20,463 bases of DNA from NCBI GenBank assembly GCA_905178155.1, contig CAJINV010000037.1, positions 6,864-27,326 of the forward strand. Direction: 5' to 3'. This stretch comes from Amoebophrya sp. A120 (taxonomy: Eukaryota > Protista > Dinoflagellata). Both the position numbers and the translations under genes were made by a program. Below the pieces are notes generated by a model. The model worked only from the letters and a program-made list of their open reading frames with translations. It did not search any database and was not told the DNA's origin. Shown piece by piece: positions 1,005 through 20,463 of this stretch (the first letter of the stretch is position 1; the number at the start of each line of letters is the position of its first letter).

Positions 1005-4000
1005 AGAATTCCTACGCCGCGTCCATCCTGCGGGAGACAGGGCAGGGGCGTAGAAATTCCATACCGCCCTGGAAAAGAAATCCGGTCCCAAGGTTGCTTT
1101 TGCGCGACACAGATCGGAGATTTCTTTCCCCGGGCGGTATGGACTTTCTACGCCGCGCCCTGCGGGCTCCACTCCAGGGTAGGGGCGTAGAAATTCCATA
1201 CCGCCCTGGAAAAGAAATCCGGCCCCAAAGTTGCTTTTGCGCAACACAGATCGGAGATTTCTTTCCCCGGGCGGTATGGACTTTCTACGCCGCGCCCTGC
1301 GGGCTCCAGGGTAGGGGCGTAGAAATTCCATACCGCCCTGGAAAAGAAATCCGGCCCCAAAGTTGCTTTTGCGCAACACAGATCGGAGATTTCTTTCCCC
1401 GGGCGGTATGGACTTTCTACGCCGCGTCCTGCGGGAGCCGGGGCAGGAGCGTAGAAATTCCATACCGTCCTGGGAAAGGAATCCGGCCCCGAAGTTGCTT
1501 TCGCGCAACACAGATCGGAGATTTCTTTTCCCGGGCGGTATGGACTTTCTACGCCGCGTCCTGCGGGAGCCAGGGAAGGGGCGTAGAAATTCCATACCGC
1601 CCTGGAAAAGAAATCCCGTCCCAAAGTTGCTTTTGCGCAACACAGATCGGAGATTTCTTTCCCCGGGCGGTATGGACTTTCTACGCCGCGTCCTGCGGGA
1701 GCCGGGGCAGGAGCGTAGAAATTCCATACCGTCCTGGGAAAGGAATCCGGCCCCGAAGTTGCTTTCGCGCAACACAGATCGGAGATTTCTTTTCCCGGGC
1801 GGTATGGACTTTCTACGCCGCGTCCTGCGGGAGCCAGGGAAGGGGCGTAGAAATTCCATACCGCCCTGGAAAAGAAATCCCGTCCCAAAGTTGCTTTTGC
1901 GCAACACAGATCGGAGATTTCTTTCCCCGGGCGGTATGGACTTTCTACGCCGCGTCCTGCGGGAGCCGGGGCAGGAGCGTAGAAATTCCATACCGTCCTG
2001 GGAAAGGAATCCGGCCCCGAAGTTGCTTTCGCGCAACACAGATCGGAGATTTCTTTTCCCGGGCGGTGTGGACTTTCTACGCCGCGTCCTGCGGGAGCCA
2101 GGGAAGGGGCGTAGAAATTCCATACCGCCCTGGAAAAGAAATCCCGTCCCAAAGTTGCTTTTGCGCAACACAGATCGGAGATTTCTTTCCCCGGGCGGTA
2201 TGGACTTTCTACGCCGCGTCCTGCGGGAGCCGGGGCAGGAGCGTAGAAATTCCATACCGTCCTGGGAAAGGAATCCGGCCCCGAAGTTGCTTTCGCGCAA
2301 CACAGATCGGAGATTTCTTTTCCCGGGCGGTATGGACTTTCTACGCCGCGTCCTGCGGGAGCCAGGGAAGGGGCGTAGAAATTCCATACCGCCCTGGAAA
2401 AGAAATCCCGTCCCAAAGTTGCTTTTGCGCAACACAGATCGGAGATTTCTTTCCCCGGGCGGTATGGACTTTCTACGCCGCGTCCTGCGGGAGCCGGGGC
2501 AGGAGCGTAGAAATTCCATACCGTCCTGGGAAAGGAATCCGGCCCCGAAGTTGCTTTCGCGCAACACAGATCGGAGATTTCTTTTCCCGGGCGGTATGGA
2601 CTTTCTACGCCGCGTCCTGCGGGAGCCAGGGAAGGGGCGTAGAAATTCCATACCGCCCTGGAAAAGAAATCCCGTCCCAAAGTTGCTTTTGCGCAACACA
2701 GATCGGAGATTTCTTTCCCCGGGCGGTATGGACTTTCTACGCCGCGTCCTGCGGGAGCCGGGGCAGGAGCGTAGAAATTCCATACCGTCCTGGGAAAGGA
2801 ATCCGGCCCCGAAGTTGCTTTCGCGCAACACAGATCGGAGATTTCTTTTCCCGGGCGGTATGGACTTTCTACGCCGCGTCCTGCGGGAGCCAGGGAAGGG
2901 GCGTAGAAATTCCATACCGCCCTGGAAAAGAAATCCCGTCCCAAAGTTGCTTTTGCGCAACACAGATCGGAGATTTCTTTCCCCGGGCGGTATGGACTTT
3001 CTACGCCGCGTCCTGCGGGAGCCGGGGCAGGAGCGTAGAAATTCCATACCGTCCTGGGAAAGGAATCCGGCCCCGAAGTTGCTTTCGCGCAACACAGATC
3101 GGAGATTTCTCTTCCCGGGCCGTATGGACTTTCCGCGCCGCGTCCTGCGGGAGCCAGGGAAGGGGCGTAGAAATTCCATACCGCCCTGCTTGCACAAGAA
3201 ATCCGGCCCCAAAGTTGCTTTTGCGCAACACAGATCGGAGATGTCTTTCCCCGGGGGGTATGGACTTTCTCCGCCGCGTCCTGCGGGAGCATGCAATGCC
3301 AAGGCAGGGGCATAGAAATTCCATACCGTCCTGGAAAAGGAGTCGAGTCCGGCCCTACAGTTGCTTTTGCGCAACACAGATCGGAGATTTCTTTCCCCGG
3401 GCAGTATGGACTTTCTACGCCGCGCCCTGGCCTGCGGGAGCCAGCCAAGGCAGAGGCGTAGAAATTCCATACCGTCCTGAAAAAGGAACCCGGCCCCACA
3501 GTTGCTTTCGCGCAACACAGATCGAGGATTTCTTTCCCCGGGCGGTATGGACTTTCTACGCCGCGCCCTGCGGGAGCCAAGGCAGGGGCGTAGAAATTCC
3601 ATACCGCCCTGGAAAAGGAATCCGATCCCAAAGCTGCTTTTGCGCAACACAGGGCAGAGATTTCTTTCCCCGGGCGGTATTGACTTTCTACGACGCGTCC
3701 TGCGGGAGCCCAGGCGAGGGTGTAGAAATTCCGCGCCGCCCTTGGAAAAGATATTCCCTCGCAAGGCTGCGATTGTGGAATACAGAGCGGGCATTTCTTT
3801 CTCCGGGCGGTATGGAATTTCTACGTCATCACCCTGGCTCCTGCATGAGGCGGTGTAGAAATTCCCTACCGTCCTGAGGACGAAGTCTCGCTCCGATCTG
3901 TATTGCACAAAAGCAATGCTGCAGTCGAGTTTCTTTTTCAGCGGCGGCTTCGAATTTCTACGCCATCGCCTTGGCTCCTGCAGGAGGCGGCGTAGAAATT

Positions 4001-4050
4001 CCATACCGCAACGAGAGGGAAGTCTCCGACCTGTGATGCACAAAGGCAGC
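1005..4050. repeat. 132-bp satellite, ~23 units, with A/B alternation (264-bp higher-order repeat); each unit is an imperfect hairpin
   Basis: gcgtagaaattccataccg recurs at 1185, 1317, 1449, 1581, 1713... (132-bp period). Variants ccgccctggaaaagaaatcccgtcccaaag and ccgtcctgggaaaggaatccggccccgaag alternate. Edge units are diverged. Confidence 0.97.
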
Positions 4051-4149
4051 TTTAACTTTGAGACCGGACTTTAACTTGAGACCGGACGTTTCGAATTGTC
4101 CGCCCCGCTGCCGAAGGAACACCCTGCGCCCGGCTGTAGCGCTTCGCGC

Positions 4150-4510
4150 ACTAAGCCACTATGCGCGCGCCTGATGTGAGGCGAGGCCGAGGGGCGGACA
4201 CTGTCCGCACTGATGCCGAACACCCTTCCCCCACTACCGCTTTGCGAACTAAGCCACTGCGCGCGCGCCTGATGTGAGGCGAGGCCGAGGGGCGGACACT
4301 GTCCGCACTGATGCCGAACACCCTTCCCCCACTACCGCTTTGCGAACTAAGCCACTGCGCGCGCGCCTGATGTGAGGCGAGGCCGAGGGGCGGACACTGT
4401 CCGCACTGATGCCGAACACCCTTCCCCCACTACCGCTTTGCGAACTAAGCCACTGCGCGCGCGCCTGATGTGAGGCGAGGGACGGACTCTGTCCGCCGCG
4501 ATGCCGAGCA
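4150..4510. repeat. 98-bp GC-rich tandem repeat, ~3.6 copies
   Basis: actaagccac at 4150, 4248, 4346, 4444. Confidence 0.95.
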
Positions 4511-4781
4511 ATGTTCTCCCACTCGCGCCACTAGGGGTGCGCACAAGGCCCCAGCGTGGGGACCCTGTCCCCACGCGTGGACCTTGTTTGTCATGCAAAA
4601 TGACCATGACCCGCCAGACGATCAAGCTGCTTCGCATGACAAATTCTCGGAGGGCTAAACAGCACTGTAGTCCGCGCCAAGCCTGTAATGCAAGACGCGC
4701 AAGATTCTCCCTCTTATCTGTGCTAGTCTTGCATTACAAATTCATGTAACAGTTGAGAATGTAACGTTTGAGAACGCCATA
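4511..4781. mobile_element. Introner-like element E1 (family D), left end degenerate
   Basis: 4586-4781 is the reverse complement of E5 (5799-6007). Right flank gagca is at 4782-4786; a candidate left copy is at 4506-4510, but the left TIR is largely missing. Confidence 0.65.
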
Positions 4782-4829
4782 GAGCAAATCTTGTCGTTGT
4801 AACACTGTTGTTTTTCTGACAGACACTGC
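4782..4829 (-). CDS. Exon (QCLSEKQQCYNDKIC)
   Basis: In frame with YGER after removal of E2. Confidence 0.75.
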
Positions 4830-7800
4830 CGCTCTATGCAAGAAAAAAACTGCGTAAGTGTAACTCTGTAATGCAAAACATGCAACAGAGTTACACCTGT
4901 CATGCCACACAGCCATGAAGTCCTTTTTTATGTGTGTTTTCCCTTACAAGCCACGCATGACAGGTTTTCTCTGTCATGTAGAGCATATTTGTGATGCTGT
5001 CAGCCAAAGAAAGTTACACTAACACAGTTTTTTTCTTGGATACGCTCCCCGTAAAACGTGATGTTGTAGATCGTGTAGTTGATCGGGTGCTGGTTGTCCC
5101 AGCTTTTCAATACCTGGTTCGAAATCGGTTCCCTAACCGACTCATTTTTCTCGTAGATCACGTAGCAGATCTTCGGGCTTGTCGTGGAGTTCCGTAGGTA
5201 CAAGAAGTTGCTCATCTGGTCCACTCTGTCTGTTGACCAAATGGAAGAGACTTTGGCGTAGAGCAGCTTCCTATGCATTGCAAAAGTATCCTATTCGTAC
5301 TCGTATAAATGCATTACAAACTTCCTCAGCATGAGAAAAAAAATTTGTAATGCTGCTACCTTAAGAACAACAAGACTTGTAATGCATGACTGCAATACGA
5401 GTGCGATACTTTTGCACAGGATACTTCCCGCCAGGCTGCACTGCGATCTCGTACGCCTGTCTTGCTTCGTCGAAGGGTCGGGTGATCAGTCCCTCCTGGT
5501 TGATGTAAGTGTAGTCATCGAAAAAGATGCATCGGAAAAGTCTCGTGTTGTATCGCAATCTGGTAAATGGAAAATCGCAATCTCGCAATGACAGGTCTGA
5601 TTCCAAGACCTGAAAACGCATGACAAATTCCATTTTTTTTCTAGCATGAAATTTCTCATGCGAAAAATTCTACTAGAAGTACTACACGATGCTTTCGCAC
5701 TGCATAAAATAGTCAATCATCCCTCCCGGAATTGTCCTTCTACTGTCCGAAAACACCGGTCCCACAATCCGGACCGGGACAGCCGGCCCTAGTGCGGATA
5801 TGGCGTTCTCAAACGTTACACTCTCAGCTGTTGCATGAATTTGTAATGCAAGACTAGCACAGGTGAGAGGGAGACCCTTGCGCGTCTTGCATTACAGGTT
5901 TTTTACTGCGGATTATTATAGTGCTGTTTAGCCCTCCGAGAATTTGTCATGCGCAGCTGCTTGCTCGTCTGGCGGGTCATGCTCATGATGGTCATTTTGC
6001 ATGACAAAGCATGTAACAGTTGAGAGTGTAACGTCTGAGAATCCCATAGCGGACCCGTAGATGTTTTGCTGAGGGTAAAACGTTTCGGACAAACAGGATT
6101 CGTAGTATGCATTGCAAACATGTCTGGGTCTGGAAGAATGCAACTTGTCATGCTAATTCTGGATAGTGCGAAAATCTGCGTTGCATGATTGCCAAAAGCT
6201 GCTCGCTTTTGACCAAGCTGAGAAGGATTTTCTCATGCCAACGAGGCATGATAGAGGTCGGACAGGATCTGTCATGCTGGGTCATGTATGACAGACCTCA
6301 CGCGTCACGGAAAACCTGCATGACAAGTCTTCCAACCTTCCAGAACCAGACATTTTTGCATTTGATACGTACCCGCGGGTGACTAGTTCGATGTAGTCCT
6401 GGTAATTCTTGTCTTTCGTCTTGTTCCACACGGTGATTTATGGATTGCAAAAGTGTCTGGGTCTGGAAGAGTGCAAAGTTTGCCATGCATGTTTGCATGA
6501 CCCACGATGCTTGTAATGCATGACTTAGCATCACAGATTTTTAGAAGGCTTCCTGATGCCTATTCGGCATGACAAATGCCCTCCCCGCGTAGCACAAACA
6601 GGATGCCTTTTGCTGGTCATGCAAACCAAATCTTTTTAGAATCCAAACACAGCATCACAAGTTGCAACCTTCCAGACCCAGACATATTTGCATTTGATAT
6701 GATCTGGTAGGACAGATCCGCGGTGAGAGTTGTGTCGTCAGAATTGTTGTCCTGTGCAAAAGTATCGCATTCGTAGTAATTGCAGTTATGCATTACAAGT
6801 TTCTTTCTTAAGGTAAATCCACATGACAAATTTTATTTCTCACGCTGAGGGAATTTGTAATGCATTTATACGAGTGCGATACTCTTGCAATGCATAATTG
6901 TAGCAAGCATCCGCCGCTGGAACACCGAGAAATTGCTCCTGAAACAGCTCAGCACTTGGTGTGGTCAACGCCAAACTGGACTCCTCCAAGGTCTTCGCGT
7001 TAATCGTTATTGCAGAGTCTAACAATGGCGGAAGGTTTTCCCGGGTTTGTTTCGACACGTACCGGGACTTTGTCATCAAATTGCTGAACCCCTTCAAATC
7101 GCCGCCCGCGATGCTGTGAATTGACCAGGCGCGGAACTGCTCGTAGTGGGTTCTTAACTCAGATTTCAACTGCTGATCGGATAATTTCTGCTGCGGTGAC
7201 TGTTGTTGCGTCGTGAGTTGCTGGAAAAACTCCATTGTGATGTTGGGGAGCTGAAGGCTGTCTAAAATCGAGTCCTGCAACGAAGATCCTGCACCCGCTT
7301 GCGCGTGCGGTTCCGCCACGAACTGGGAGTAGATCAACCAGTCCGTGTAGGGCTTGTTCGCGAAGAAGAAGTCCTGCTGGAGCGAGAAACCCTCCTTCGG
7401 GCACATCGAATAGGCCCGAATTACGTCGTTCTTCCAGCACTCGACGACGCACTCGTCGGGCGCTTTGAGTCTGATGCTGTTGTTCACGTTCGGTAAAGGT
7501 TCGTAGCAAATATCGGACAGTGGTGGTGGCATGGCGGCTGCTAGTTGTGCTGCTGCTTCCGACCGGTTGAAGGCCAGCGGGTCGGGGGTCGGGCTGGAGC
7601 CGGACCCGACGTGCGGGGCCGGGAGGTTGCTGTGCGTTGTGGAGGTTGGACATTTAGGATTTTGGTGGACACGCAGCTTATAGTAATGCTGCTCTTTCTT
7701 TTCAAATAGGGCAGGGCGCGAGCGGCGGCGGGGTGTTTATTTCATTCAAAATTCTTGTCATGCATCATCACTTCTTCGTTCATTATGGGCAGGCGCTTGG

Positions 7801-10800
7801 TTTTCCGCGGGGCTTTTCTAAAAGAGATCTAAAAGCGCGGAACTAAGCCCTCGCGCCTCGTCACGGCGTCCTGCATTGCGAGGGCCCCTAGTGGGGGGTG
7901 GGGATTCCACCAGGGGGGCGCAGCAACAGTTGATGTGGATCAAAAGGCGCGCCGGGTGCGGCGCCGCAACATACTAGATTCGCGCGCGCGCACTAATGGG
8001 GAGGGGGTTGCAGCAGAGCATCTAGTTGGACTAGGCCCGCGCAGGAAAGAGAAAAATCGAAGCACCGAGCGGGGGTGGCGCGGCTCAAGCAAAAAGCGAG
8101 CCGGCGGCCGGGCTTCGTGAAAGAACAGCAGCACAAGAGCCGCCCGCCCGCGCAGAGCTGCGGCGGCTGGCTGCTAATTTTGGGAGAAGTTGCAACAGCG
8201 TCAGCGGCTGGCTGCGGAAAAACCACAAAGCCAGAAAAACAAAAGAACCCAAACACCCCCGAGACCGAACCCCATCCCGAGACACCGACCAAGAACGCCC
8301 CCCCGCACAACCAACCCGAAGGAAGGAAGCGAGGCGAGGCAGAAGGCGCGGCGTCTCGGAATGGGGATCGATCCCGGAGGTATAAAAGTTCTTAGTACAC
8401 CGCGGCGCCAAAAGGCGCCGCGTGTCTAAAGAACTGCAGAGCAGTAAACGAAAAGCCGAAACAGGAAAAAAAAACGAAAAACGAGAAACAAAACCAAAAC
8501 AACAAAAGACGAGATCCCATCGCCATTTGGCCCAAAAGCAGTGCGGTATTAGTCTCGGTCAGCCAGCTCTGTAAAAGAAAACCGACTTTCGTTGCCCGAT
8601 CCACATGCATACATTTTTCATAGATGGGTCGAGCATACCCTGGACCCTAGTCGCTCATCGCTTTCTGCAGCACAAAATGCGACACGGTCATACTTGAATT
8701 CCATCAATGCTTCATGCACACATGGTTCTATCGCTCAGACGCGCACCTGCCTGTGAATCATTTGAGTCGCGCGGACATTGACAACAAGACAGACAGATTT
8801 GAAGGTGAAGAGTGACGTCAAAAAAGCAAAAATAAACATGAAAATAATGACGGACAGTGGTGAATAAGTGTGTAGTGCTCTTATATCAGCCAGCAGACGC
8901 ACTGATCTCTTTCTTTCTCGGTTCTACGCACTACGCTGATCTCTTCGTCAGAATCTCTTCAAGGAAAATTCATCTGATCCAGTCTGTTTCGGAAAGAAGT
9001 GTGAATCTTTTGGCTCGGAAATCTCTATATCGCAGTACCGCAGGAGAACATCAAAGTAAAGCTCTTTTTCTCGTACGTACTTCTACCGTGCAGGTTTTGA
9101 AAATACACGCTGCTAGTGCTGCTACGCCTACGCCTAACGCCGCACGACTTTGACTTACAAAACACCATTTACTAAAATCGACATTATCATACCTGAACCT
9201 CGGCGCTGCAGCGTCCCCAGCAACTCCATCCGTAGATGCGGGTACAGAATCGCCAGTAGCCGTCGTCAGCATCCGCAGCACCCTGGAACTCGAAGAACCA
9301 GTTGCGTTCGCCGCATCAGTGAAATTGCACAGCTGTGTGATGTATCAAATGCAAATGTGTCTGGGTCTGGATGAGTGCAAATGTTTGTCATGCTGCTCTT
9401 GCATGAACTAGGAGGTCTGGCATACCAGGCCTGGCATCACACGTCCTGAGAAGGTGTTCCAATGCCTAACCCGCATGACAAATCTCCTCTTTTGGAGTCA
9501 AATTTTGCGCCGCCTTTGCTGCTCATGCTTGACAGATCTGCGTATTGTCTGAAATATGCATCACAAGTTGCAATTTTCCAGACCCAGACATATTCGCAAT
9601 GCATATGATGTTCATCGTCAACTCGGCGGACAAATTCGCGGAAACCAAGCTGGTGTAGTTCAGATACACCGAGCAGTAGAAATCCTCCACCTGCTCCACC
9701 TGCGTCTTGCACCTTTCCATCCGCCACTGGTGTTCCAAATCCTTGACGCAGAATTGGTCATTCAAACCGTCCAAACTGGTTTTCAAATTGCTGTCACATA
9801 TCGGAAGAAAAAAGTGTTTACAGTTTACACATTGCGTTGCAAGAACGGCAACACAGACAACCTTTCTCATGCAGAAAATGCTTTGGATCCTCGTTTCCTT
9901 CCTGTTTTCCCTTATGATCTTTGCATTGCAAGTTTTATCTGTCGTGCAGAAAAAACTTGTGATGCTGAAGTTACAGCAAGTGTGTAACTGTATACACTTT
10001 TTTCGCGGGATATCACACTTCGACTCTTCAGTCTCAACCCCGTTCAGAACCAGATCGATTCCAAACCGCTCCTTCGTGATGGTGGTTGTCTGCTCAAAAT
10101 TGTCCGGCTCAGAGAAGTCGTAGACGCACGGAACTTCGGAAAACCAGGGGGTGGCGTTTTGTGACACCGCGTATGCATTGCAAAAGTAACGTACTAGTAG
10201 TAATTGCATTACAAATTACCTCAGCATGACAAATGAAATTCGTCATGCTGTTTTACCTTGGGATGGAGATTTGTAGTGCATGTTTGCAATCACTACGAGT
10301 ACGATGCTTTTGCGCAGGATACTGCAGTTTGTGTTGCCATTTCGGAAGAAGTATCATTGGTCTCGTTCGTGGCGTTTGATGAATCGGAAGCAGAATCGCC
10401 GGGACTATCAAACGCAAAAGTGTCTGGGTCTGGAAAGTTGCAAGATTTGTCATGCATCTCGCGAACCACACTCATGGTCTGTAATGCAGACCGAAGCATC
10501 ACGATTTTATTTTCAGACCTTCGTCATGCCTCTTCCGCATGAGAAATTCCCCTTTTGCCTACCAAGAATGGGGTAACTGTTGCCGTTCATGCAACACAGA
10601 CTTCCTCGTGATCCAGGTTTCGCATGACAGGCTTCATTCTTCCAGACCCAGACATATTTGCAATGCATAGGAGCCGCCACTTGTCGTATTCGAACCGTTC
10701 GTTGCGTTTGAACCTGTAGCTCCACTGCTATCTGGACCACCAGCAGCCCCAGTTGCGTTTGTCCCGTTCGTAGCGTTCATATCCTCGTCGAATCCGGAAG

Positions 10801-13800
10801 ATGAAGGCGCGGCTGTTGTCGCGTTCGAGGCGTTTGTTGTGTTCCCGAAATCAAAATCGTCATCATCGACCAGTCCTGTTCTGGAATCACTGCTGACGTT
10901 GTGACACACGGTGTAGTTGCTGCCATTCGTCTCGTTGGTCCCGTTGAAAAAGGTACAGTTGTGTGTTGGGGAAGAACTCGCATCAGAAACACCGTCGCCC
11001 GCAGCTGTGTCGTTGGTCGCATTCGCAACTCCAGCGTCGTCTGTTGCTGACGCGTTGGAAGTTGCGTTTGTGGCGTTCGAGCCACTAGCTGTTTCTGATA
11101 TGGAGAGAAAAAAGCTTGTCACAGGCACTACCTTGCAGGTTTTGCATCAGAGCTTTTCTTTGTATTGCATGAGCACTAGGGAAATCCCTTATGAAGTTTG
11201 GCTGTGATGCATTTTTACGCATGACAGAAAATTTTGCATTGCAAAAATGCGCATGAGTAATCGTGACGAACTTTTTTTGTTTGATACCTGAGACTGCAAC
11301 TCCACCACTGGCATTTGAGGCGTTGGTAAAATTGTTCGCAGTCGAAGATACACCTCCGGCGCCACCAGGATATGCTGTGCAAAAGTATCGCATTCGTACT
11401 TCTAATTGCAAATATGCATGACAAATCTTCCTCCTAAGGTACAACAGCATTACAAAGTCCTCTTTTCTTCTTACGAAAATTTGTAATGCAATTTATACTA
11501 GTACCCTACTTTTGCAATGCATACAGGACCTGTAGCGGAAGCTGTAGCTGTGGCACTGAGGTCTCTGTCCACACAAGTTTCTACGTCAAATTGCGGATCG
11601 GCGTAAGGATCGTAGAAGGGGTCCCTCGCGCTTGCCGAAGGATATGATATTAAGAGGAAAGATCCCCCCTCCCCATATCGATAAGGTATGCTTCCGGAAA
11701 TTTGTGTTGCTGATTTGCGACCTCAAATCACGTCTGTCTTGCAAGAAGGCAATCCGACAAGCTACGCAGCATTGCGCAGGCGGTTTGTGATGCTGATGGG
11801 CCTACAGAAAGGACGTTTCTCATGCTAGACGCCTAGGCCAGAGCCTCTCTACTTAGGCTTAGTATGGGGCTGCATTCCTCTCTAGCAAGACAGATCTTAT
11901 TTGTGTACGCAAATCCTGCATCAGAAACTTCGTTTTGATATGGGGAGGGGGGATTTTTCCTGTTGATATATGAAACGCGATGTTTTCTTGTCAGCGCCGG
12001 TTTGCAATACGTCCCCTCTTCACACCCCTTGCTTCCCCCGGGGTCCCCCCTGGCATATCTCCAGGCCTTCTCCGGGTTCCCCACGATCCCCCCCCTGTTT
12101 TCCTCCGGTTTTCCTTTTTGGTTGGGTGGATACTAAGACTAAACTACTTCCGACGAAACAGCAGTCAGCTCGATGCCGGTCCCGGTTCCTCGCAAGCGTA
12201 TATTTTTGCTTTAGCACAACCACGGGGATCGTGGTTGTGCGATAAGTCAAAAAATTGCACCAGAACTCCTGAAACAGGCTCTGTTTCAGAGCCTTTCATG
12301 CTGGTACTTGCGAAAGCAGAGGCGACAAAAACACCTTGAAGAGAGACCAGATCCCAGCCGAGGCAAAACAGCAGTCAGCCCGTTGCCGGTTCCTCGCAAG
12401 CTTAAACTTTGCTTTGGCACAACCCCGGGCCAATCAATCAAAAATACCTAGAAGGCAGACCAGGTTCCAGCTGAGGCAAAACAGCACTCAGCCCGTTGCC
12501 GGTTCCTCGCAAGCCTAAATTTTGCTGTAGCACAACCACGGGCCCGCCAAAAGCACCTAGAAGGCAGACCAGATCCCAGCTGAGGCAAAACAGCAGTCAG
12601 CTCGTTGCCGGTTCCTCGCAAGCTTAAGCTTTGCTTTAGCACAGCCGTTAAGGATCGGCGTAAGGATCGTAGAAGGGGTCCCTCGCGCTTGCCGAAGAAT
12701 ATGATATCCTGAGTAAAAGCGTCCCCACACCAGAGTCAAGATGGGGACTTTGCAACACAAACCTAGGAGTTTTGGGAGTCACGCATGACAAGTTTCAGTC
12801 CGTAAGGTAGTGCAAGTTAGCAAGGAAAGCCGCATCACACATCGATCTGCTAATCCTGTTTACAGCATTACAAGTTCCCAAACACAATTGGAACTGCCTG
12901 TCATGGGGTTGCGCATCACAAATGTTCCTGTCATGGCAAATCTGCATGACAACTCTGGTGTGGGTACGTTTTTACTCAGGATATATGAAACGCGATGTTT
13001 TCTTGTCTTCAGCTCCGGTTTGCAATGCGACCTTTCTCTAGTTTCCCCCCTGCCTGTCTTCTGCAGCGTTTTTTTTCGCGATTTGTGATCCGCGGACGAC
13101 CTAATTCCTGTTTTTGTGCAAAATCTGCTTCCAAAGAAAGACCGGCAAAAGCGCCATCGTATCTCTAGAAACAGCTCCTGTTTGTCACCCGTATGATGCA
13201 GGAGCTACAACACCTGAAAAACATAAAACAACACCCGCGGGCGGCGGCATGCTCATTTTCTTTGTGTGGGTAAACCACCAGGAAAAAGCAGCATCCACGA
13301 GAAGTCTTTTTTGCTATCAGGTGGGGGAACCGCTCTGGGAAGAAAAGCTGTCTGTCTTCTGCAGGGCTTTTTTTGCGATTTGTGATCCGCGGACGACCTA
13401 ACTCCTGTTTTTTGTGCAAAATCTGCTTTCAAAGAAAGCCCGGCAAAAGCCCCATCTTATCTCTAGAAACAGCTCCTATTTGTCACCCGTAAGATGCTGG
13501 AGCTACAACACCTGAAAAACCTAAAACGACACCCGCGGACGGTGGCATACTCATTTTCCTGGTGTGGGTAAACAACCAGGAAAAGGCAACATCCACAGAG
13601 TGTCTTTTTTGCTATCAGGGGGGGAACCGCCCTGGGAAGAAAAGCTGTCTGTCTTCTGCAGGGTTTTTCTTTGCGATTTTTGATCCGCGGACGACCTAAT
13701 TCTTGTTTTTGTGCAAAATCTGCTTCCAAAGAAAGCCCGGCAAAAGCACCGTCGCATCTCTAGAAACAGCTCCTACTTGTCACCCGTAAGATGCAGGACT

Positions 13801-16800
13801 GACAACACATAGAAAACCTAAAACGACACCCGCGGACGGTGGCGCGATCATTTTCCTGGTGTGGGTAAACCACCCAGAAAAAGCAACATCCACAGGAAGT
13901 CTTTTTTGCTATCAGGGGGGGAACCGCTCTGGGAAGAAAAGCTGTCTGTCTTCCGCAGGGCTTTTTTGGCGATTTGTGATCCGCGGACGACCTAACTCCT
14001 GTTTTTTGTGCAAAATCTGCTTTCAAAGAAAGCCCGGCAAAAGCCCCATCGTATCTCTAGAAACAGCTCCTAATTGTCACCCGTAAGATGCAGGAAAAAC
14101 AACACATAAAAAACCTAAAACGACAACCGCGGACGGTGGCAAGATCATTTTCCTGGTGTGGGTAAACCACCCAGAAAAAGCAACATCCACAGGAAGTCTT
14201 TTTTGCTATCAGGGGGGGAACCGCTCTGGGAAGAAAAGCTGTCTGTCTTCCGCAGGGCTTTTCTGGCGATTTGTGATCCGCGGACGACCTAACTCCTGTC
14301 GCTAAGTTCCAACTCGCGCGTGTAAATGCTGTAATCGAAACCCAATTGTTCTCCAATGCACGTGCTGCACTTTCAATTCTGTCCTGCAAAGGAAACCACA
14401 TGACAAACTGGCAGCGACAGAAAAAACTACTTCACGCCCCTCGCCATAACACCACCTCCCCGTGCGCCGGCACTCTGCAGACCGGGTACCGCTCTCTGAC
14501 CGTCGGTTGCCAAAGGCAGCCGTTCAAATTTTGGCTCGGCCACGATTTCAAGCAGCAATCGTAGTACCGATTCAGGTGGCAGATGTTATCGGAATAGCAA
14601 CTCTTGCTCTCGATCGGGCAGTTGGCGAATTCCGGCGTCAAGTAGTTCGTATCGATCAACACAGTCGTGTTGGTTGTGTTGCTGAAGTTGTAGCACAATC
14701 TCGGCTGAATTTGCGTCTCGATCACGTTGTGCTCAGACTGTTCAAGCCTGCTGGAAAGCGTCGGAATTTCCTCTGGATTTGTATTGCTAGCTCCGGTGCT
14801 AGTACCTCCAAACACGTGCCTTGCCAAATCGCTTCTGGTCAAGATCAGCTCTGGCTCGATTGTCACGTTGCCATTGGTCACACTCCTGTCCGCGAAGAAA
14901 AACCTTTGTAGCAAACGGCTCCGCTCGTGCGAATTTGCCGGGAACAGGTAGTCGAAAACCCCGGTGAGGACTTTCATTTCCTCGGAAACAATTTGCTGTG
15001 CCTGATTTTGCTGGCTGCCTGATGGTCCTCCACCTGGCCCACCAGAACCTGATGCAGAAGAGCTGCCCGATGATGTTGACCCTAGAGCATCCACGCAGTG
15101 CTGATTCAACATAGTCTGTTCCTGTTCCGTTAAAGCCGAAACCGTCCTCGTACTTCCATCCGCCTCCACAACTTGCTGCGTCTGCAAAACCTTCACGGCA
15201 ATCGTCTGCACCTGGGAGTTGGACGTCGGCGCTCCTGTTCCTGCAGTCATTCCGAACAAAACGTTATCCAGCCCCAGCAACCTTGCGATCGTTTGCTTTG
15301 CGAAGGTTAAATTCTCCGCGAGAGTCAAGCGGACCACATTGCACATGAACTGTTTCACCTCATCGTTCACATCGAGATCTGTCATGTTGAACAGCTCAGT
15401 CGTCACCGAAGCCGATTGTGAGAACACAGAATCCCCCCCGTAAAAGTCTTTCAATTCCGGTAGTCTCTGTTCCAGAAACTGCAAGAACCCTCTCGCCTGC
15501 CTGCAACGCGGGATGTCCAAGTCGTTCAGAAACATCGTCACGCGGCGCAGCATCGCATGGTCGTTTACGTTTTCGAAGATCAGCATCTGGTCCGTTAAAT
15601 CGTCCCTGTAGCAGGTCTCCATGACGGGCAGGTACCTGCTGTTCAACACTGCATCGGTGGATAATAATTGCAGCGCGTCGGCGTTCACCATGTTGAAGTC
15701 CGTATCAATCGAGCAGTTCCCCGTCGCGTTCGGTTTCAACGCTGCGCCAGTCGGCCCCTCTAATGCGTAGAAGGCGTTGAGACCTTTTTTTAGAAGTTTA
15801 TCGTAGGTTTGGGATGCTACGGTGCAGGAACTGAACCCTCGGGCGATGTTATCCTTCCAACATTTGATCCCACACTGCTATGAATTGCAAAAGTATCGTA
15901 CTAGTACAAATTGCAATACAAATTATCTCAGCATTACAAATTGAATTTGTCATGGGGATTTACTTTGCGAAAAAGACTTGTAATGCATAGCTGCAATTCG
16001 TACGAGTACGATACTTTTGCACAGGATAACTGCAAAGGGCCACGGATCTTCACTTTGTTGACGAGTGCGAGGTCGTGGTTGTTTTCCAGCCCAGTTGACC
16101 ATCAACTGTAAAAATGTCTGGGTCTGGAAGATTCTGACACTTGTCATGCACGTTTTGCATGAGCCCTGATGCCTGTGATGCATGCCCTAGCATCACAGAT
16201 TTTTTGAGAGCTCCTTGATGCCGATTCCGCATGACAAATGCCCTCTCCGCGTAGCAAAAATTACATTCCCCGTGGTACTCATGCAATACAGATTTTTCTG
16301 GAATCCAAATGCAGCATCACAAGTTGCATTCTTCCAGACCCAGACACTTTTACATTTGATATTGACACAAACCTCGGATCCTCTCGCCAGACTCTGTCGT
16401 CCCCGAAAGTGGACAATTCTCCATTGTTGTCCAAATGCCCACTTTATCCTGTGCAAAAGTATCGCACTCGTATAAATGCATTACAAATTTCCTCAGCATG
16501 AGAAATACAATCTGTAATGCGGATTCAGCTTTAGAAAAAGATTTGTAATGCATGTTTGCGATAATTACTACGAGTACGATACTTTTGCAGTTCATACACT
16601 TGCGTACGTCCAGCAGACCGTCTGGTTCAAATTTTCCAGGGAATTTTTACACTCCGGAATCCCAAACATTACCTCGAAGGACTGTGGGCACAGTTTCGTG
16701 TTGTCGTGCTTGTATTCGTAGCTGTCGATGTAATTCGTCGCGTTGTCCGCGGCGACTTTTCCCGTGCAGACCGAGAACTTGACTAAGTTCGACACGATCA

Positions 16801-19800
16801 CGGAAAACTCGTCGTATTTTGGGTCTGCTTCGTCAATGCACGGGTTGGTGTCCACCCCATTAGCGGATACTGCTAGAGAGGAGTCGGGGAGCCGCTCGAC
16901 GTAGAGCGCTACTGCTGTCAAGGAGTCAACCTCGGCGTCGAGATTCATGATCTGCAGCTGGTCGATGGTTGCATTCAGACTAGTCCGCTGCTGGAGCAGT
17001 AGACTTATCTGCATTTCCACCGTCTCGTTGACAAAATGACTGTCGTTGAAGATCCGCAACTCTGCCGTGGAGTTCAGTTCCTTCGGACAGTGGTCAAAGC
17101 CAGAAGTCGTCCACCTGTGGTACCTATGCATGGCAAAGATGTCTGGGTGGTCTGAAAGAACAAGAACTTGCGATGCTAGTATGTGGATGGTTAGCAACAT
17201 CCTCTTTTGAGTCACGCATGCGAAGTCTTTGTGCTACTACACCAGGTCCTCCGTAACCCGCATGACATCAAATTGCTTTTTTTCATGACAACCAAATGCA
17301 AATGGAACTTCATCCCCAGCAAATGCATGACAGGTCTGTTTGTCTTGTCAGCGAACCATGACAAATCTTGTTCACGACCCAGACATCATATTCTTGTAGT
17401 GGATAGAATTTCTTATCCAGCAATTTGTCCCGCAGCTGGTACCTATCAAATGTAAAAATGTCTGGGTCTGGAAGAATGCCAGACTTGTCATGCATATTTT
17501 GCATGACTCAGGATGTCTGTAATGCATGATCTAGCATCACACATTTCTAGAGGCTTTCCTGATGCCTATCCCGCATGACAAATGCCCTCCCCGCGTAGCA
17601 CAAACTGGGCGCCTCTTGCTGGTCATGCAATACAGATTTTTTTAGAGTCCAAAGCTAGCATCACAAGTTGCATTCTTCCAGACCCAGACATTTTTACATC
17701 TGATAGTACCTGCAGCCAGACAACTGCACTATCAACTGCAAAAATGTCTGGGTTTGGAAGAGTCGGGGCTTGTCATGCACATATTGCATGATCCGTCAGG
17801 TCTGTGATGCTGGTTCTAGCATCACAGATTTTTTATTGAAAGCTTTTGATGCTAATTACGCATGAGAAATGCCCTCTCTGCGTGCCATGAGCTGACTCCT
17901 CCTGCTGCTCATGCAACACAGACATTTTTGGAATCCGTAGACAGCATTACAAGTTCCACTCTTCCAGACCCAGACATTTTTGCAATGCATATGCACGGTT
18001 GGAAAACACTTCCGACAGCAATCCTGATTCCGGTGCGTCGCGCACAGCTCGTCGCAGTAACAAGGCTGCACCTTCCGATTGCAGTCATACGTCGCGTAGA
18101 AGTGGATTTCGTTCGTCGCCGGACTCGTTCCGTTCACATCCGTTTCCGGGAACGCGTAGCAAAAGCCTCGGTACTTCCAGAACGATTCGCTGATATCTAA
18201 CAGATTCGACTCCCCGCGATCCTTCGCTTCCTCCCTCGCTTTGAAGAGGTTCGCAACCTCTGATCCCAGTTTCTCGTGAAGATATGCGAGGGTGAGATTT
18301 CTCAAATTCATTTCGCTGGATGAAGTGATACTCGAATCCCCGTGCAGGTCTGCGTAGGTGTGCAGCCAAATTTCTGCCGCGGAAGTCGCATTGGCAACAG
18401 TGCTGTTCTCATCAAAATTAGAAACACTAACTGCCAAATCATTCGCAAGTACATCCGCTTCGATAAGCCTTCCCCGCCACTCCATCTCCGGGCAAGGTTC
18501 AAACCCGTCGGCGATTTCCGTTTGGAGACTTTCTGTAGTGTTTTCGATCCCTTTTTTGAAGACGATTTGCGCTATTTGGAAGTCGTGGTGCAATCCCTCC
18601 ACTTCTCGAATAATTTTCTTATCTTCCCAGCAAATCGTTTCCGGAATCACTTCTGTCACGGTGGCTGTCACGTTACTTGTGACGTTGATCGGCATCTCGT
18701 AGAAAATCTGCACGGAGGCATTCACTTCTTGCTCCGTGCTGTAGGGCGAGATCGTTCCGTTTTGATCCAAACGGAACTCCAGCAATCGCTCCAGCAACAC
18801 CTGTCTCGCGGTGTGGTTGGTGAAGTTCCGGTTTTCTTCTACTGTCTGCTCCATCGTTGTTGTCGTGATTCTGGTGATTTTCGTGGTTTCATTACAGGCC
18901 TTGTGCCCCCTGGTGACGTTGTTCTTCCAGCAGTTCTCCGTATCCAAGGCCCACTGACACTGCGGCGGCGACCGCAGGACGAAGGAACCGTGGATTTTGC
19001 TGACGGAAGATGCAGGTGTTGGACTGTAGACGGCCGGGCCGAGGGTGATCGTTGTCTCTGTCGTTTCTGAAGTGGAATCTTCTGCGACAGCGGTCGAAGC
19101 TGCAATCATCGGCTGATACATGCTGGTCAACGCGATCGGGGTGGTGCTGTCGTCGAAAACTTGGATAGAGCCGTCGCTGCCTACTGCTACTGTTCCGCCC
19201 GCTACCGCCGATGCAGTGTCATCGATGTTGTAAAACGCTTGCAAGCTGCGTCGCAGCTGCCGGGCAGCACTTTTTGAAGCAGGAGCGCTAGAAGAACTAC
19301 CAGATGCAGCTTGCTGCCCACCAGCAGAAGCAGAACCGCCTGTCGTTCCATTGGTCGCGTTTTCATCAGCAAACTCTGTTCCTCCAGTTTGGCTCAAGTT
19401 CACCAACATTTCGAAAACCTGGTCGGTGGAGAAAACCTGCGACTGCACTGCGTTCCCTTCCGTCTCCTCGACATACATTTCGTTCATGCACACGCGGTAT
19501 CAATTGCAAATATATCTGGGTCTGGCAGGTTCTGGCACTTGTCATGCACGATTTGCATGAGCCATGATGTGTGCGATGCATGCCGTAGCATCACAGATGT
19601 TTTGAACGGCTCTTGATGCCTATTCCGCATGACAAATGCCCTCTCCGCGTAGCAAAAAGACATTCCCTTTGCTGCTCATGCAATACAAATTTTTTTGGAA
19701 TCTAAATGCAGCATCAAAAGTTGCATTTGTCTGCACCCAGACATATTTGCAGTTGATACTCGGCCCAACTCCGCACACTGCCCGTTCATCGCCGTCTCCG

Positions 19801-20292
19801 CGAATTTGCAGTCCTGCTTCGTCTATCCAGTGCAAACATGTCTGGGTCCGGAAACTTGTAATGCTGAGTTGTGGGTAGTGAACTCTCTGTAATGCACAGC
19901 CAAGCATGAGAAATTATACTTATTTGCGCTGCTTATTGTTGCGCTTTCCGCAAGACAAACTGCGTTTTTCATAACAAGCAAGCGGTTCGCTTCTTGGACA
20001 CGCATCACAAGCTCTTCAGCCATGTCAGACAAGCATGACAAACCTTGCATCCTTCCAGACCCAGACAGATTTGCAATGCATATCGTCCTGAGCTTCATGC
20101 AGAAGGGCAGGTCAAACGCCTCGACGAATTCTGTCATGCAGAAGGTGTTGCCGTCGCAGATGTACTCGGAAATCCACTGCGTGTCCAGAAGCGGTAGCGA
20201 ACCGTGGGCGATGGAAGGGGGGAGAAGGGGGTGTCTTCAGCGTTTTTCTTTTGTTTACATAGTGAAGCTCCTGCGCATGGTGCCGCGAATGA
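4782..20292 (-). CDS. Multi-exon locus (about 26 exons traced, both ends unresolved) for a large Cys-rich, NxS/T-rich putative secreted or surface glycoprotein; may be one gene or 2-3 tandem paralogs
   Basis: Minus-strand ORF segments join in frame after removing each TIR element plus one 5-bp repeat. There are three continuous blocks: 20292-14440, 12028-9159 and 7697-4782. The links between blocks are not resolved. No family is recognised beyond SMB-like Cys motifs. Confidence 0.8.
4835..5042. mobile_element. Introner-like element E2 (family C)
   Basis: TIR tatgcaagaaaaaaactgcgtaagtgtaact / agttacactaacacagtttttttcttggata; direct repeat cgctc at 4830 and 5043. Confidence 0.9.
5043..5266 (-). 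CDS. Exon (LLYAKVSSIWSTDRVDQ...NITFYGER)
   Basis: Core of ORF 5000..5278, bounded by E3 and E2, in frame on both sides. Confidence 0.85.
5272..5423. mobile_element. Introner-like element E3 (family A, ~150 bp)
   Basis: tatgcattgcaaaagtatc / gatacttttgcacaggata; repeat cttcc at 5267 and 5424. Confidence 0.92.
5424..5563 (-). CDS. Exon (TRLRYNTRLFRCIFFDDY...QPGGK); 5' boundary approximate
   Basis: Core of ORF 5361..5633; joins LLYAK in frame. Confidence 0.75.
5568..5706. mobile_element. Degenerate family A element E4
   Basis: Right end cgatgctttcgcactgcata resembles the family A TIR and internal gcatgacaaa motifs are present. The left TIR is eroded; a taaa repeat at 5564 and 5705 would keep the frame. 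Confidence 0.55.
5705..5793 (-). CDS. Exon (LGPAVPVRIVGPVFSDSRRTIPGGMIDYF)
   Basis: In frame with IYGSA after removal of E5; missed by the ORF track. Confidence 0.75.
5799..6048. mobile_element. Introner-like element E5 (family D)
   Basis: ~40-bp TIR tatggcgttctcaaacgttacactctcagctgttgcatg / catgtaacagttgagagtgtaacgtctgagaatcccata; repeat gcgga at 5794 and 6049. Confidence 0.92.
6049..6100 (-). CDS. Exon (ESCLSETFYPQQNIYGSA)
   Basis: In frame across E6 and E5. Confidence 0.8.
6106..6367. mobile_element. Introner-like element E6 (family B, ~262 bp), inverted relative to most B copies
   Basis: tatgcattgcaaacatgtctgggtctggaag / cttccagaaccagacatttttgcatttgata; repeat cgtag/cgtac. Confidence 0.92.
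6368..6433 (-). CDS. Exon (TVWNKTKDKNYQDYIELVTRGY)
   Basis: In frame across E7 and E6. Confidence 0.82.
6439..6699. mobile_element. Introner-like element E7 (family B)
   Basis: Family B TIRs; repeat tgatt/tgatc at 6434 and 6700. Confidence 0.92.
6700..6742 (-). CDS. Exon (SDDTTLTADLSYQI)
   Basis: In frame across E8 and E7. Confidence 0.8.
6748..6896. mobile_element. Introner-like element E8 (family A), inverted relative to E3 and E19
   Basis: tgtcctgtgcaaaagtatcg / cgatactcttgcaatgcata; repeat attgt at 6743 and 6897. Confidence 0.92.
6897..7697 (-). CDS. Large exon (...HYYKLRVHQNPKCPT...MPPPLSDICYEP...AADACYN); 5' boundary approximate
   Basis: ORF 6840..7532 frame stays open upstream to 7700; contains ECWKNDVIRAYSMC. 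Confidence 0.85.
8947..9082 (-). CDS. Candidate exon (KYVREKELYFDVLLRYCDIEISEP...KRF*)
   Basis: A canonical GTAAGT...TAG intron at 9083-9158 would join it in phase 0 to SKWCF. It ends in TGA unless spliced earlier. Confidence 0.4.
9159..9337 (-). CDS. Exon (TQLCNFTDAANATGSSSSRVLRMLT...DFSKWCF)
   Basis: In frame after E9; ends at a perfect GTAAGT donor (9158-9153). Confidence 0.85.
9343..9605. mobile_element. Introner-like element E9 (family B)
   Basis: Family B TIRs; repeat tgatg at 9338 and 9606. Confidence 0.92.
9606..9793 (-). CDS. Exon (SNLKTSLDGLNDQFCVKD...ELTMNI)
   Basis: Part of ORF 9523..10209 between E10 and E9. Confidence 0.85.
9799..10012. mobile_element. Introner-like element E10 (family C-like)
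   Basis: tatcggaagaaaaaagtgtttacagtttacac / gtgtaactgtatacacttttttcgcgggata; repeat tcaca at 9794 and 10013. Confidence 0.88.
10013..10166 (-). CDS. Exon (VSQNATPWFSEVPCVYDF...EESKCD)
   Basis: Part of ORF 9523..10209 between E11 and E10. Confidence 0.85.
10172..10321. mobile_element. Introner-like element E11 (family A)
   Basis: Family A TIRs; repeat ccgcg/ctgca (2 mismatches). Confidence 0.9.
10322..10400 (-). CDS. Exon (GDSASDSSNATNETNDTSSEMATQTA)
   Basis: In frame across E12 and E11. Confidence 0.82.
10406..10669. mobile_element. Introner-like element E12 (family B)
   Basis: Family B TIRs; repeat gggac/ggagc (2 mismatches). Confidence 0.9.
10670..11093 (-). CDS. Exon, low-complexity NAT/NxT-rich linker
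   Basis: Core of ORF 10634..11128 with very dense N-glycosylation sequons. Confidence 0.88.
11099..11286. mobile_element. Introner-like element E13, removable as a canonical GT-AG intron (11095-11287)
   Basis: TIR tatggagagaaaaaagcttgtcac / gtgacgaactttttttgtttgata; repeat tctga/cctga; minus strand reads TCAG|GTATC...ATATCAG|AAACA. Confidence 0.85.
11287..11365 (-). CDS. Exon (GGAGGVSSTANNFTNASNASGGVAVS)
   Basis: In frame across E14 and E13. Confidence 0.82.
11371..11523. mobile_element. Introner-like element E14 (family A)
   Basis: Family A TIRs; repeat cagga at 11366 and 11524. Confidence 0.92.
11524..11642 (-). CDS. Exon (PSASARDPFYDPYADPQFDVETCVDRDLSATATASATGP)
   Basis: In frame across E15 and E14; missed by the ORF track. 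Confidence 0.82.
11648..11968. mobile_element. Introner-like element E15 (family E, 321 bp)
   Basis: tattaagaggaaagatcccccctccccatatc / gatatggggaggggggatttttcctgttgata; repeat tatga at 11643 and 11969. Confidence 0.88.
11969..12028 (-). CDS. Exon (GCEEGTYCKPALTRKHRVSY); 5' boundary approximate
   Basis: In frame with YPSASARD after removal of E15. Confidence 0.7.
12150..12645. repeat. ~111-bp intronic tandem repeat, 4 copies (first separated by a spacer)
   Basis: aaacagcagtcagc..gttgccggttcctcgcaagc...tttgctttagcacaac near 12156, 12366, 12478, 12588. Confidence 0.9.
12652..13038 (-). pseudogene. Partial duplicate of the exon pair at 11595-12020, ending in TAA
   Basis: 12652-12707 matches 11595-11650 at 55/56 nt. 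12984-13038 is a diverged copy of 11969-12020. Spliced, it reads HCKPELKTRKHRVSYSSASARDPFYDPYADP*. Confidence 0.75.
12705..12983. mobile_element. Introner-like element E16 (family F, 279 bp)
   Basis: tatcctgagtaaaagcgtccccacaccagagt / actctggtgtgggtacgtttttactcaggata; repeat tatga at 12700 and 12984. Confidence 0.9.
13055..14299. repeat. ~297-bp tandem repeat, ~4.2 copies
   Basis: gatccgcggacgacctaa recurs five times about 297 bp apart (near 13087, 13384, 13682, 13978, 14275). Confidence 0.95.
14432..15873 (-). CDS. Large exon (CGIKCWKDNIARGFSSC...LKPNATGNC...YPVCRVPAHGE); 3' end is an unresolved donor or the TGA at 14432-14434
   Basis: ORF 14432..15739 extends in frame up to E17. Confidence 0.9.
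15879..16028. mobile_element. Introner-like element E17 (family A)
   Basis: Family A TIRs; repeat actgc at 15874 and 16029. Confidence 0.92.
16029..16094 (-). CDS. Exon (TGLENNHDLALVNKVKIRGPLQ)
   Basis: In frame across E18 and E17. Confidence 0.82.
16100..16361. mobile_element. Introner-like element E18 (family B)
   Basis: Family B TIRs (left begins cat rather than tat); repeat ttgac at 16095 and 16362. Confidence 0.92.
16362..16439 (-). CDS. Exon (GHLDNNGELSTFGDDRVWREDPRFVS)
   Basis: In frame across E19 and E18. Confidence 0.82.
16445..16596. mobile_element. Introner-like element E19 (family A)
   Basis: Family A TIRs; repeat cactt at 16440 and 16597. Confidence 0.92.
16597..17119 (-). 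CDS. Exon (HRWTTSGFDHCPKELN...VCWTYAS)
   Basis: Core of ORF 16592..17215. Confidence 0.88.
17125..17405. mobile_element. Diverged family B element E20
   Basis: tatgcatggcaaagatgtctggg / acccagacatcatattcttgtagtggata; flanking 5-mers gtacc/gaatt are poorly matched, but the frame is preserved at the usual offset. Confidence 0.8.
17406..17438 (-). CDS. Micro-exon, 33 nt (QLRDKLLDKKF)
   Basis: In frame across E21 and E20. Confidence 0.75.
17444..17705. mobile_element. Introner-like element E21 (family B)
   Basis: Family B TIRs; repeat gtacc at 17439 and 17706. Confidence 0.92.
17706..17724 (-). CDS. Micro-exon, 19 nt (QLSGCRY)
   Basis: In frame across E22 and E21. Confidence 0.75.
17730..17991. 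mobile_element. Introner-like element E22 (family B)
   Basis: Family B TIRs; repeat tgcac at 17725 and 17992. Confidence 0.92.
17992..19492 (-). CDS. Largest exon (VCMNEMYVEE...CYCDELCATHRNQDCCRKCFPTV), ending in an SMB-like motif
   Basis: ORF 17856..19493 trimmed at E22. Confidence 0.92.
19498..19758. mobile_element. Introner-like element E23 (family B)
   Basis: Family B TIRs; repeat cgcgg/ctcgg. Confidence 0.9.
19759..19818 (-). CDS. Exon (KQDCKFAETAMNGQCAELGR)
   Basis: In frame across E24 and E23. Confidence 0.82.
19824..20082. mobile_element. Introner-like element E24 (family B)
   Basis: Family B TIRs; repeat tcgtc at 19819 and 20083. Confidence 0.92.
20083..20210 (-). CDS. Exon (AHGSLPLLDTQWISEYICDGNTFCMTEF...MKLRT); 5' boundary approximate
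   Basis: Open frame upstream of and into ORF 19823..20137; in frame across E24. Confidence 0.8.
20259..20292 (-). CDS. Candidate small exon (IRGTMRRSFTI)
   Basis: Preceded by TTTGTTTTTGTTCTTCAG and followed by GTAAAC; in frame with the next exon if 20211-20258 is removed. Confidence 0.5.
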
Positions 20293-20391
20293 CTGAAGAA
20301 CAAAAACAAAAGTTGGGAACCCCTAGAAAAGAACCCCAAAACCTTGAGCACACACCCAGGAAACACCCGGGACACACCCCCGAAACACCCA

Positions 20392-20463
20392 GGAAACGGG
20401 TGGGAAACGGGTGGGAAACGGGTGGGAAGCGGGTGGGAAACGGGTGGGAAACGGGTGGGAAAC
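20392..20463. repeat. 11-bp G-rich minisatellite (GGAAACGGGTG)n, runs off the window
   Basis: About 6.5 near-perfect copies, one with an a>g change. Confidence 0.95.

Follow-up and report, generated by a model that had tools for sequence, protein, structure and literature searches.

The window analysed here is a stretch of 20,463 nt from the marine parasitic dinoflagellate Amoebophrya sp. A120 (contig CAJINV010000037.1, positions 6,864 to 27,326 of the forward strand) that carries, on its minus strand, coding sequence interrupted by 23 elements with terminal inverted repeats (TIRs) of the form TAT…ATA, located between positions 4835 and 20082 and measuring 149–321 nt each. Removal of an element plus 5 nt, the length of the direct repeat at its borders, at each of 22 junctions yields three minus-strand blocks comprising 2,108 codons with 0 stops. 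Judged by their sequence, the inserts match the A120-type introner class. This class is already known, its terminal motif and genes holding tens of these introns have been published, and the locus is therefore not a discovery; its value is that of a test case for how A120-type introns are cut, and it contributes details open to testing but no new system. The additions of the present analysis are the frame kept through the ageing of the inserts, a simulation of a 5-nt (+5) cut rule combined with alignment sliding, the invariant 5′ UAU of the elements (23/23), the predicted cross-pairing of neighbouring elements, and a duplicated site bearing two elements.

Inserted elements

The elements were collected by scanning for every TAT…ATA pair whose ends resemble inverted repeats, and four decayed ends were placed by hand. 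Perfect 5-bp direct repeats flank 15 of the 23 two-ended elements, and at least four of the five positions match in 20/23, whereas randomly paired flanks give a perfect 5-bp repeat in 0.64% of draws; a 6-bp direct repeat was found in 0/23 elements, and the duplication is 5 bp. An earlier note on this DNA had listed 24 insertions and counted 16 perfect repeats among 23; most repeats are indeed perfect and 23 insertions have two ends, but the 24th (4506–4786) has a single end and the count of perfect repeats is 15. TAT begins 43 of the 46 element ends and AAA occupies positions 11–13 in 40/46. Read in transcript orientation, 5′ TAT is present in 23/23 elements and 3′ ATA in 20/23.

Two families dominate, with pairwise identities of 66–85%. 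Elements are named here by their first position, and the number of matching repeat positions is given in brackets. The family of ~260 nt has eight copies: E19498 (19498–19758, 261 nt, 4/5), E17730 (17730–17991, 262 nt, 5/5), E17444 (17444–17705, 262 nt, 5/5), E16100 (16100–16361, 262 nt, 5/5, with the transcript 3′ end ATG, not ATA), E10406 (10406–10669, 264 nt, 3/5), E9343 (9343–9605, 263 nt, 5/5), E6439 (6439–6699, 261 nt, 4/5), and E6106 (6106–6367, 262 nt, 4/5), the last being the one copy in reversed orientation. Six copies represent the family of ~150 nt: E16445 (16445–16596, 152 nt, 5/5), E15879 (15879–16028, 150 nt, 5/5), E10172 (10172–10321, 150 nt, 3/5), E5272 (5272–5423, 152 nt, 5/5), and the two reversed copies E11371 (11371–11523, 153 nt, 5/5) and E6748 (6748–6896, 149 nt, 5/5, transcript 3′ end ACA). 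The remaining elements are E19824 (19824–20082, 259 nt, 5/5), E17125 (17125–17405, 281 nt, 2/5), which is the most decayed (TIR 14/30), E12705 (12705–12983, 279 nt, 5/5), E11648 (11648–11968, 321 nt, 5/5), E11099 (11099–11286, 188 nt, 4/5), E9799 (9799–10012, 214 nt, 5/5), E5799 (5799–6048, 250 nt, 5/5), E5526 (5526–5706, 181 nt, 4/5, transcript 3′ end ATC), and E4835 (4835–5042, 208 nt, 5/5). An alternative start of the element ending at 5706, placed at 5551 without a repeat, was rejected in favour of 5526.

The one-ended 24th element (4587–4781) belongs to the E5799 family; it follows E5799 over 209 nt and ends at 4587, where it is cut off by another repeat. The GAGCA at 4506 lies inside a decayed unit of the adjoining 98-bp array, positions 4500–4596 are covered by contigs from elsewhere as a different repeat, and no partner for the lone end at 4781 was found in 1–4700.

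Along the TIRs, the ends agree in 21–23 of 23 elements at positions 1–3 and 9–13 and in only 8, 14, 14, and 3 of 23 at positions 4, 5, 6, and 7, a pattern that predicts a short terminal helix and an internal loop followed by a long stem. Which end variant an element carries is independent of the orientation of its interior (E5272 compared with E16445), which hints at inversion between the TIRs.

A piece of an exon is present in two copies, 11595–12030 and 12651–13040, with left flanks identical at 52/53 positions and a 3-nt indel in the right flank. The identical 5-bp site in both copies bears different young elements, E11648 (321 nt) in one and E12705 (279 nt) in the other, between which no BLAST match of at least 100 nt was found; either two insertions occurred at one site or one element was replaced by another.

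Coding sequence after removal of the elements

Junctions were treated at 22 elements, E12705 being excluded since it lies within the duplicated exon copy. Block 1 (14453–20215, minus strand) consists of nine exon pieces that give 1,278 codons after removal of eight elements plus 5 nt each, and encodes repeated Cys-rich modules with 30 N-glycosylation sequons. Block 2 (9159–11990, minus strand; 414 codons after removal of seven elements) encodes an N/S/T/A-rich linker followed by a module shared with the homologue P0001, and block 3 (4787–7533, minus strand; 416 codons after removal of seven elements) breaks off where a Cys box begins. Among all frame combinations at these junctions, 72/6561, 6/2187, and 36/2187 stay open in blocks 1–3, respectively (joint 5e-7), a test that sets the removed length only modulo 3.

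Two gaps separate the blocks. Gap 1 (11991–14452) contains a lone TAT end at 14445, for which no partner end was found, two tandem arrays (297 bp × 4.2 at 13050–14299 and 113 bp × 2.9 at 12326–12643), and the partial exon duplicate, which ends in a stop. Gap 2 (7689–9158, minus strand) is a plausible candidate for an ordinary GT-AG intron: the donor GTAAGT at 9158, pointed out in the earlier note, is present in phase 0, and an in-frame CAG lies at 7691–7689. Minus-strand pyrimidine-rich tracts ending in CAG at 14387 and 8436 are candidate ordinary acceptors inside the gaps. At the 5′ side, a possible start ATG near 20278 (20230–20285) joins the open frame only after removal of a 24-nt GT…AG piece; alternatively, the first exon lies beyond the window. 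For the Cys box that terminates block 3, the remainder could not be located within the window; the encoded protein is interrupted inside this box, at 4782.

Homologues of the encoded protein

With the exon 14450–15877 as query, a HMMER search against 1.84 billion proteins returned ten distant, unnamed relatives (P0001–P0010) that share a repeated Cys-rich module, the best with 48% identity over one domain. These relatives are long and rich in N-glycosylation sites, carry repeated Cys boxes and CWK motifs, and have 3–4 matched stretches in 5/10 cases. P0001 matches the end of block 1 (E 1e-24) as well as block 2 (E 1e-4), and block 3 begins with the motif that follows in the module order; the three blocks thus likely belong to one gene. 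Across the ten homologues, 10/13 motif matches have a spacer of 7 within the Cys box, and a Pro-to-Cys spacer of 2 occurs in 5/5. This spacing is reproduced at E17730, E17444, and E15879 only by +5 removal, with which the alignment is gapless there; removal of 2 or 8 nt with the element displaces both spacers.

Word-index searches recovered neither the protein itself nor a close one, which is weak evidence, and Pfam at its cut-off assigned no family to seven exon pieces. Likewise, no Pfam family covers the shared module in the ten homologues, one of which has an unrelated YHYH domain, and the best hit of a sequence search of the PDB had an E value of only 0.55. By prediction, the gene encodes a Cys-repeat glycoprotein, either secreted or exposed at the cell surface, that falls into no known family.

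Selection on the reconstructed frame

The two copies of the direct repeats are mismatched at 12/115 positions (95% interval 5.5–17.5%), so many of the inserts are old. When neutral drift of 5% was simulated, a mean of 10.4 stops arose per 2,108 codons and 0/1000 runs stayed open; at 2% drift, 13/1000 did. The reconstructed codons have a GC content of 0.65 at third positions and 0.44 at second positions. It is very likely that the frame was maintained after most of the insertions, that is, under selection, and a frame maintained while the inserts aged implies that these are removed from RNA. The earlier note had posited a functional gene with a single continuous frame. Selection is backed by the 2,108 stop-free codons despite the aged inserts and by the homologues, and the frame is open in three blocks across 22 junctions, but the two unclosed gaps and the broken 3′ end put one whole-locus protein in doubt.

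Splice signals and cut register

GT-AG occurs at any of the six +5 registers in 2/23 elements, E11099 and E17444. Exact frame-keeping GT…AG ends, as in canonical U2-type introns, are thus confined to these two; the proposal of precise removal without GT-AG holds, as a reconstruction, for the other 21/23, and the earlier statement that a single element (E13) gives GT-AG has to be amended accordingly. At a +5 register, E5272 has GA-AG and E9343 has AT-AC. Allowing a total shift of up to 6 nt provides a frame-keeping GT-AG for six further elements, and two elements have none within 30 nt. The 5′ UAU is intact at 69/69 positions, in contrast to the 12/115 mismatches in the repeats (Fisher p 0.004). 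The mismatches of the imperfect repeats (4, 3, 1, 3, and 1 at positions 1–5) favour no single register. Removal of 8 nt with each element was rejected given a stop at E11099 (4+4 register) and gaps relative to the homologues.

In a simulation of how a single cut rule would appear in annotated introns, the +5 model let the aligner slide within the repeat so as to maximise the matched letters of GT…AG, a rule assumed from the usual behaviour of such aligners. The pool consisted of 1,994 introns in the seven families with at least 96 members among 19 of the 58 A120 rows in the accessible part of PMC12130899; 14 families (12 of them small) were left out, and the TAT ends of all seven pooled families were assumed. 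In the same source, the annotated 5′ ends of the pooled introns are GT in 27%, AT in 18%, GC in 5%, and GA in 5%, and the 3′ ends are AG in 29% and AC in 18%. The +5 model with sliding came within a distance of 0.05–0.07 of these annotated ends whatever the true register, compared with 0.26–0.42 for fixed or random placement, and its ten highest-ranked motifs include 8 of the 9 that predominate in A120. If the sliding assumption holds, this modelling suggests that the published diversity of A120 splice sites is mostly the product of one +5 rule and aligner sliding.

Sequencing reads at the locus

Run X1, whose kind is not on record, behaves like DNA and covers exons and inserts alike. Its depth is 27–35 in exon-only bins and 2e4–3.5e5 in most element bins, with only 47–150 at E17125; this summed contig depth exceeds that of exons about a thousandfold or more in most element bins and is not a copy number. 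The element families are highly repeated across the genome. Four X1 contigs with no differing letter and a depth of 27–35 cross eight exon-element boundaries, at 7 of the 8 elements of block 1, and one contig spans E17125 whole. These contigs run unbranched across the boundaries, which argues against common excision from DNA.

Seven of ten runs (X1, X3–X5, and X7–X9) were compared with the locus. No RNA run is listed as covering 14440–20260, which says nothing about expression. For the runs other than X1, coverage was confined to parts of the locus, and an uncovered stretch proves nothing. On 14300–20463, X5 has 129 reads, all on element ends and continuing into other sequence, X7 has no reads, and X8, which is RNA only by our guess, covers element bins only. 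On 4500–13100, X8 and X9 contribute short pieces on elements, with no element-crossing junction among the joints listed, and X3 and X4 sparse pieces with gaps, over exons as well as inserts. At 16313–16362, RNA reads of X5 that derive from another locus carry an end of the 260-nt family running into its own flank, which indicates an unremoved element end in a transcript.

Predicted folding and neighbour pairing

All 23 elements are predicted to fold more stably than shuffled sequences (z −2.3 to −12.8), and in 22/23 the predicted hairpin joins the ends, with at least 18 of the 30 terminal bases paired. Equilibrium co-folding, for its part, cross-pairs neighbouring elements in 4/6 clusters. Given such cross-pairing, hairpin geometry alone would skip exons, and cutting would have to proceed element by element during transcription; on these models, removal is probably co-transcriptional.

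Relation to published introners and kindred systems

The inverted repeats of A120 introners have been described as TAT, seven variable nucleotides, and at least three A, and their 5-bp direct repeats are shown in the legend to Fig. S19 of the same paper (PMC7789003). The link to Amoebophrya introner elements drawn in the earlier note is therefore closer than its author knew. That paper also reports that U1 was undetected in A120 while U2, U4, U5, and U6 were found and the spliceosome is nearly complete, and that 15% of the canonical A120 introns have the same repeat layout; the border position and the removal mechanism were left open by Farhat et al. 2021 (PMC7789003). In line with the earlier note, a literature search covering few subscription journals found no resolved mechanism. 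The structure- or protein-guided splicing invoked in that note is a restatement of this published question. In its accessible part, Gozashti et al. 2025 (PMC12130899) reports that a single A120 gene can carry tens of introners, and it files A120 family 38 as Ginger, with a 5-bp target-site duplication and TA/TA termini. Another Amoebophrya strain has U1, and its introns are mainly GT-AG, according to the accessible part of PMC12005148.

No difference in kind was found between A120 introners and the elements of the locus. Both have inverted repeats of TAT + 7 nt + AAA, direct repeats of 5 bp, and a hairpin, measure 150–320 nt, fall into many families, have no fixed splice dinucleotides, and interrupt a functionally unannotated gene tens of times. 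The lengths 149–153, 208, 214, 250–264, 279, and 321 recur among the A120 families tabulated in the accessible part of PMC12130899, a comparison of length only. Whereas published A120 introners have repeats of 3–5 nt and variable splice sites, a single +5 rule covers all 22 junctions examined here; conversely, the published junctions are RNA-supported genome-wide and those of the locus are predicted from sequence.

Among kindred systems, compared from the accessible parts of the sources, Ginger family 38 shares TA…TA termini and the 5-bp target duplication, but by description it is ~810 nt long with integrase-like open reading frames (ORFs), whereas the locus elements (149–321 nt) are too short for a transposase (PMC12130899). 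IS3EU/GingerRoot elements likewise have TA…TA termini and terminal inverted repeats, with a duplication that is usually 6 bp and not the 5 bp of the locus (PMC10045372). Introns of euglenids and of Fritillaria borealis resemble the locus elements in their origin from miniature inverted-repeat transposable elements (MITEs), end-joining TIRs, and junction repeats like target-site duplications; the pyrimidine|purine junction tendency and CAG/CTG pairing of the former and the AG-AN ends of the latter are lacking at the locus (PMC11282704). In Fritillaria the spliceosome is reported to remove such TIR-derived non-canonical introns, and euglenid TIR introns leave as full-length circles without a lariat by an unknown mechanism (PMC11282704).

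Removal of the inserts from RNA

Our preferred reading, which we hold with doubt and confidence in about equal measure, is that the inserts are likely non-autonomous DNA transposons and that a modified spliceosome, guided by the hairpin of each insert, would excise them from the pre-mRNA along with one copy of the 5-nt repeat. An integrase-type (Ginger- or IS3EU-like) transposase would have inserted the elements with a 5-bp target duplication, a step of which we are rather confident, and the gene would have been under selection after insertion, so that the inserts leave the RNA, which we consider the most secure part. Each element may then fold on itself during transcription and unite its ends, standing in for U1 and GT-AG; the 5′ UAU would be kept as a cis signal, and the cut would precede neighbour pairing. 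This step appears somewhat more probable than its contrary. Whether the catalyst would be the U2/U5/U6 core, not a separate nuclease and ligase, is a point on which we are evenly divided. The basis of the transposon part is given by the TAT…ATA ends, the 5-bp repeats, the genome-wide families, the occurrence of both orientations, and the restoration of frame and homologue spacing by +5 removal; for the spliceosome speak the undetected U1 of A120, the strain that has U1 and mainly GT-AG introns, and the Fritillaria parallel.

Several points weigh against this reading. The +5 rule closes neither internal gap (14445 to ~12000; 9158 to ~7690) nor the 3′ end. The homologue alignments set the target duplication at 5 bp but not the register in the mRNA, and they are poor around E17125. 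Part of the conservation of UAU is due to the way the ends were chosen, and the asymmetry of altered ends (0/23 at the 5′ side, 3/23 at the 3′ side) is not significant by itself (p 0.23). The neighbour cross-pairing described above belongs here as well, as do the lack of a conserved 3′ AG, most elements being without AG at each of the six +5 registers, and the formation of terminal UAU:AUA pairs in only 15/23 predicted structures. Finally, the present data do not separate the spliceosome from another enzyme.

The last point leaves room for the main rival, which we regard as possible, if rather unlikely, namely that these transposon-derived introns leave through the action of a structure-reading endonuclease and an RNA ligase, independently of the spliceosome, as suspected for euglenids. 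It would fit the fact that neither GT nor AG emerges as a consensus at any of the +5 registers, the presence of elements in both orientations, and the strong end-to-end predicted hairpins, and it has a parallel in the euglenid circles without a lariat (accessible part of PMC11282704); yet the A120 spliceosome is nearly complete, 15% of canonical introns share the repeat layout (PMC7789003), and the junction structure is uneven, with terminal pairs in 15/23. A bolder form, speculative and less probable again, would make removal of TAT…ATA with exactly 5 nt the single rule for every A120-type non-canonical intron, the published splice-site diversity being an alignment artefact; a hairpin-reading nuclease and ligase, acting without the spliceosome and dependent on the 5′ UAU, would cut these introns co-transcriptionally, whichever way round they lie. 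Were it true, any insertion of the transposon family would be a clean intron at once.

It is distinctly unlikely that the gene is recently dead or truncated, the inserts having once been spliced and the locus since broken by arrays, exon duplication, and the cut-off 3′ element. Gap 1 does contain both arrays together with the partial exon duplicate and its terminal stop, the final element has a single end, the protein stops inside a Cys box, and 133/1000 simulated runs are stop-free at 1% drift, so that recent gene death is compatible with the frame, a further point against the preferred reading. Against this stand the 0 stops or frameshifts in 2,108 codons; moreover, both gaps are readable as long introns, and the remainder of the gene may lie beyond the window.

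The cut could also lie one base outside TAT and ATA, producing NT…AN introns and one extra codon per insert, and such a +2 cut was first suggested by the prevalence of NT-AN in Table S4, where it describes 8 of the 9 predominant A120 motifs. It keeps the frame too and would make E4835 and E5272 GT-AG. The +2 register was nevertheless rejected, and we consider it very improbable: it adds a stop at E17444, inserts one residue relative to the homologue spacing at E17730 and E15879, and in the simulation gives no GC or GA donors, annotated at ~5% each, with a poorer fit (0.13 as against 0.05–0.07).

Ciliates remove TA-bounded, TIR-bearing internal eliminated sequences precisely from the DNA of their coding sequences. 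Comparable excision at this locus is extremely improbable given that X1 contigs are unbranched over eight boundaries, though 15 of 723 joints were listed and contigs drop rare variants. Equally little credence is due to the view that the published removal reflects reverse-transcriptase template switching over a repeat-flanked hairpin, with no splicing in the cell: apparent introns present only in cDNA are documented (accessible part of PMC8240250) and the layout of hairpin and short direct repeat is right, but such an artefact cannot keep 2,108 codons stop-free as inserts age, and translation without splicing would lose the frame or meet a stop at most junctions.

As a test piece, the locus offers eight elements with imperfect repeats, whose cut position would be readable from ordinary reads, clusters with exon pieces of 24–84 nt in which wrong-partner pairing is predicted, and the duplicated site with two elements. 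If the single +5 rule is true, DNA would suffice for building gene models of this lineage, and the search for the mechanism narrows to a reader of TAT…ATA that measures five bases.

Other repeats in the window

Upstream in window coordinates, a larger inverted-repeat element occupies 32–628, with arms at 32–135 and 525–628 that are 81% complementary and repeats of 12–13 bp; TAT…ATA ends were not noted for it. A 132-bp tandem array of 21 copies, the units of which are internally palindromic, extends over 1026–3825, and a 98-bp tandem array lies at 4140–4480.

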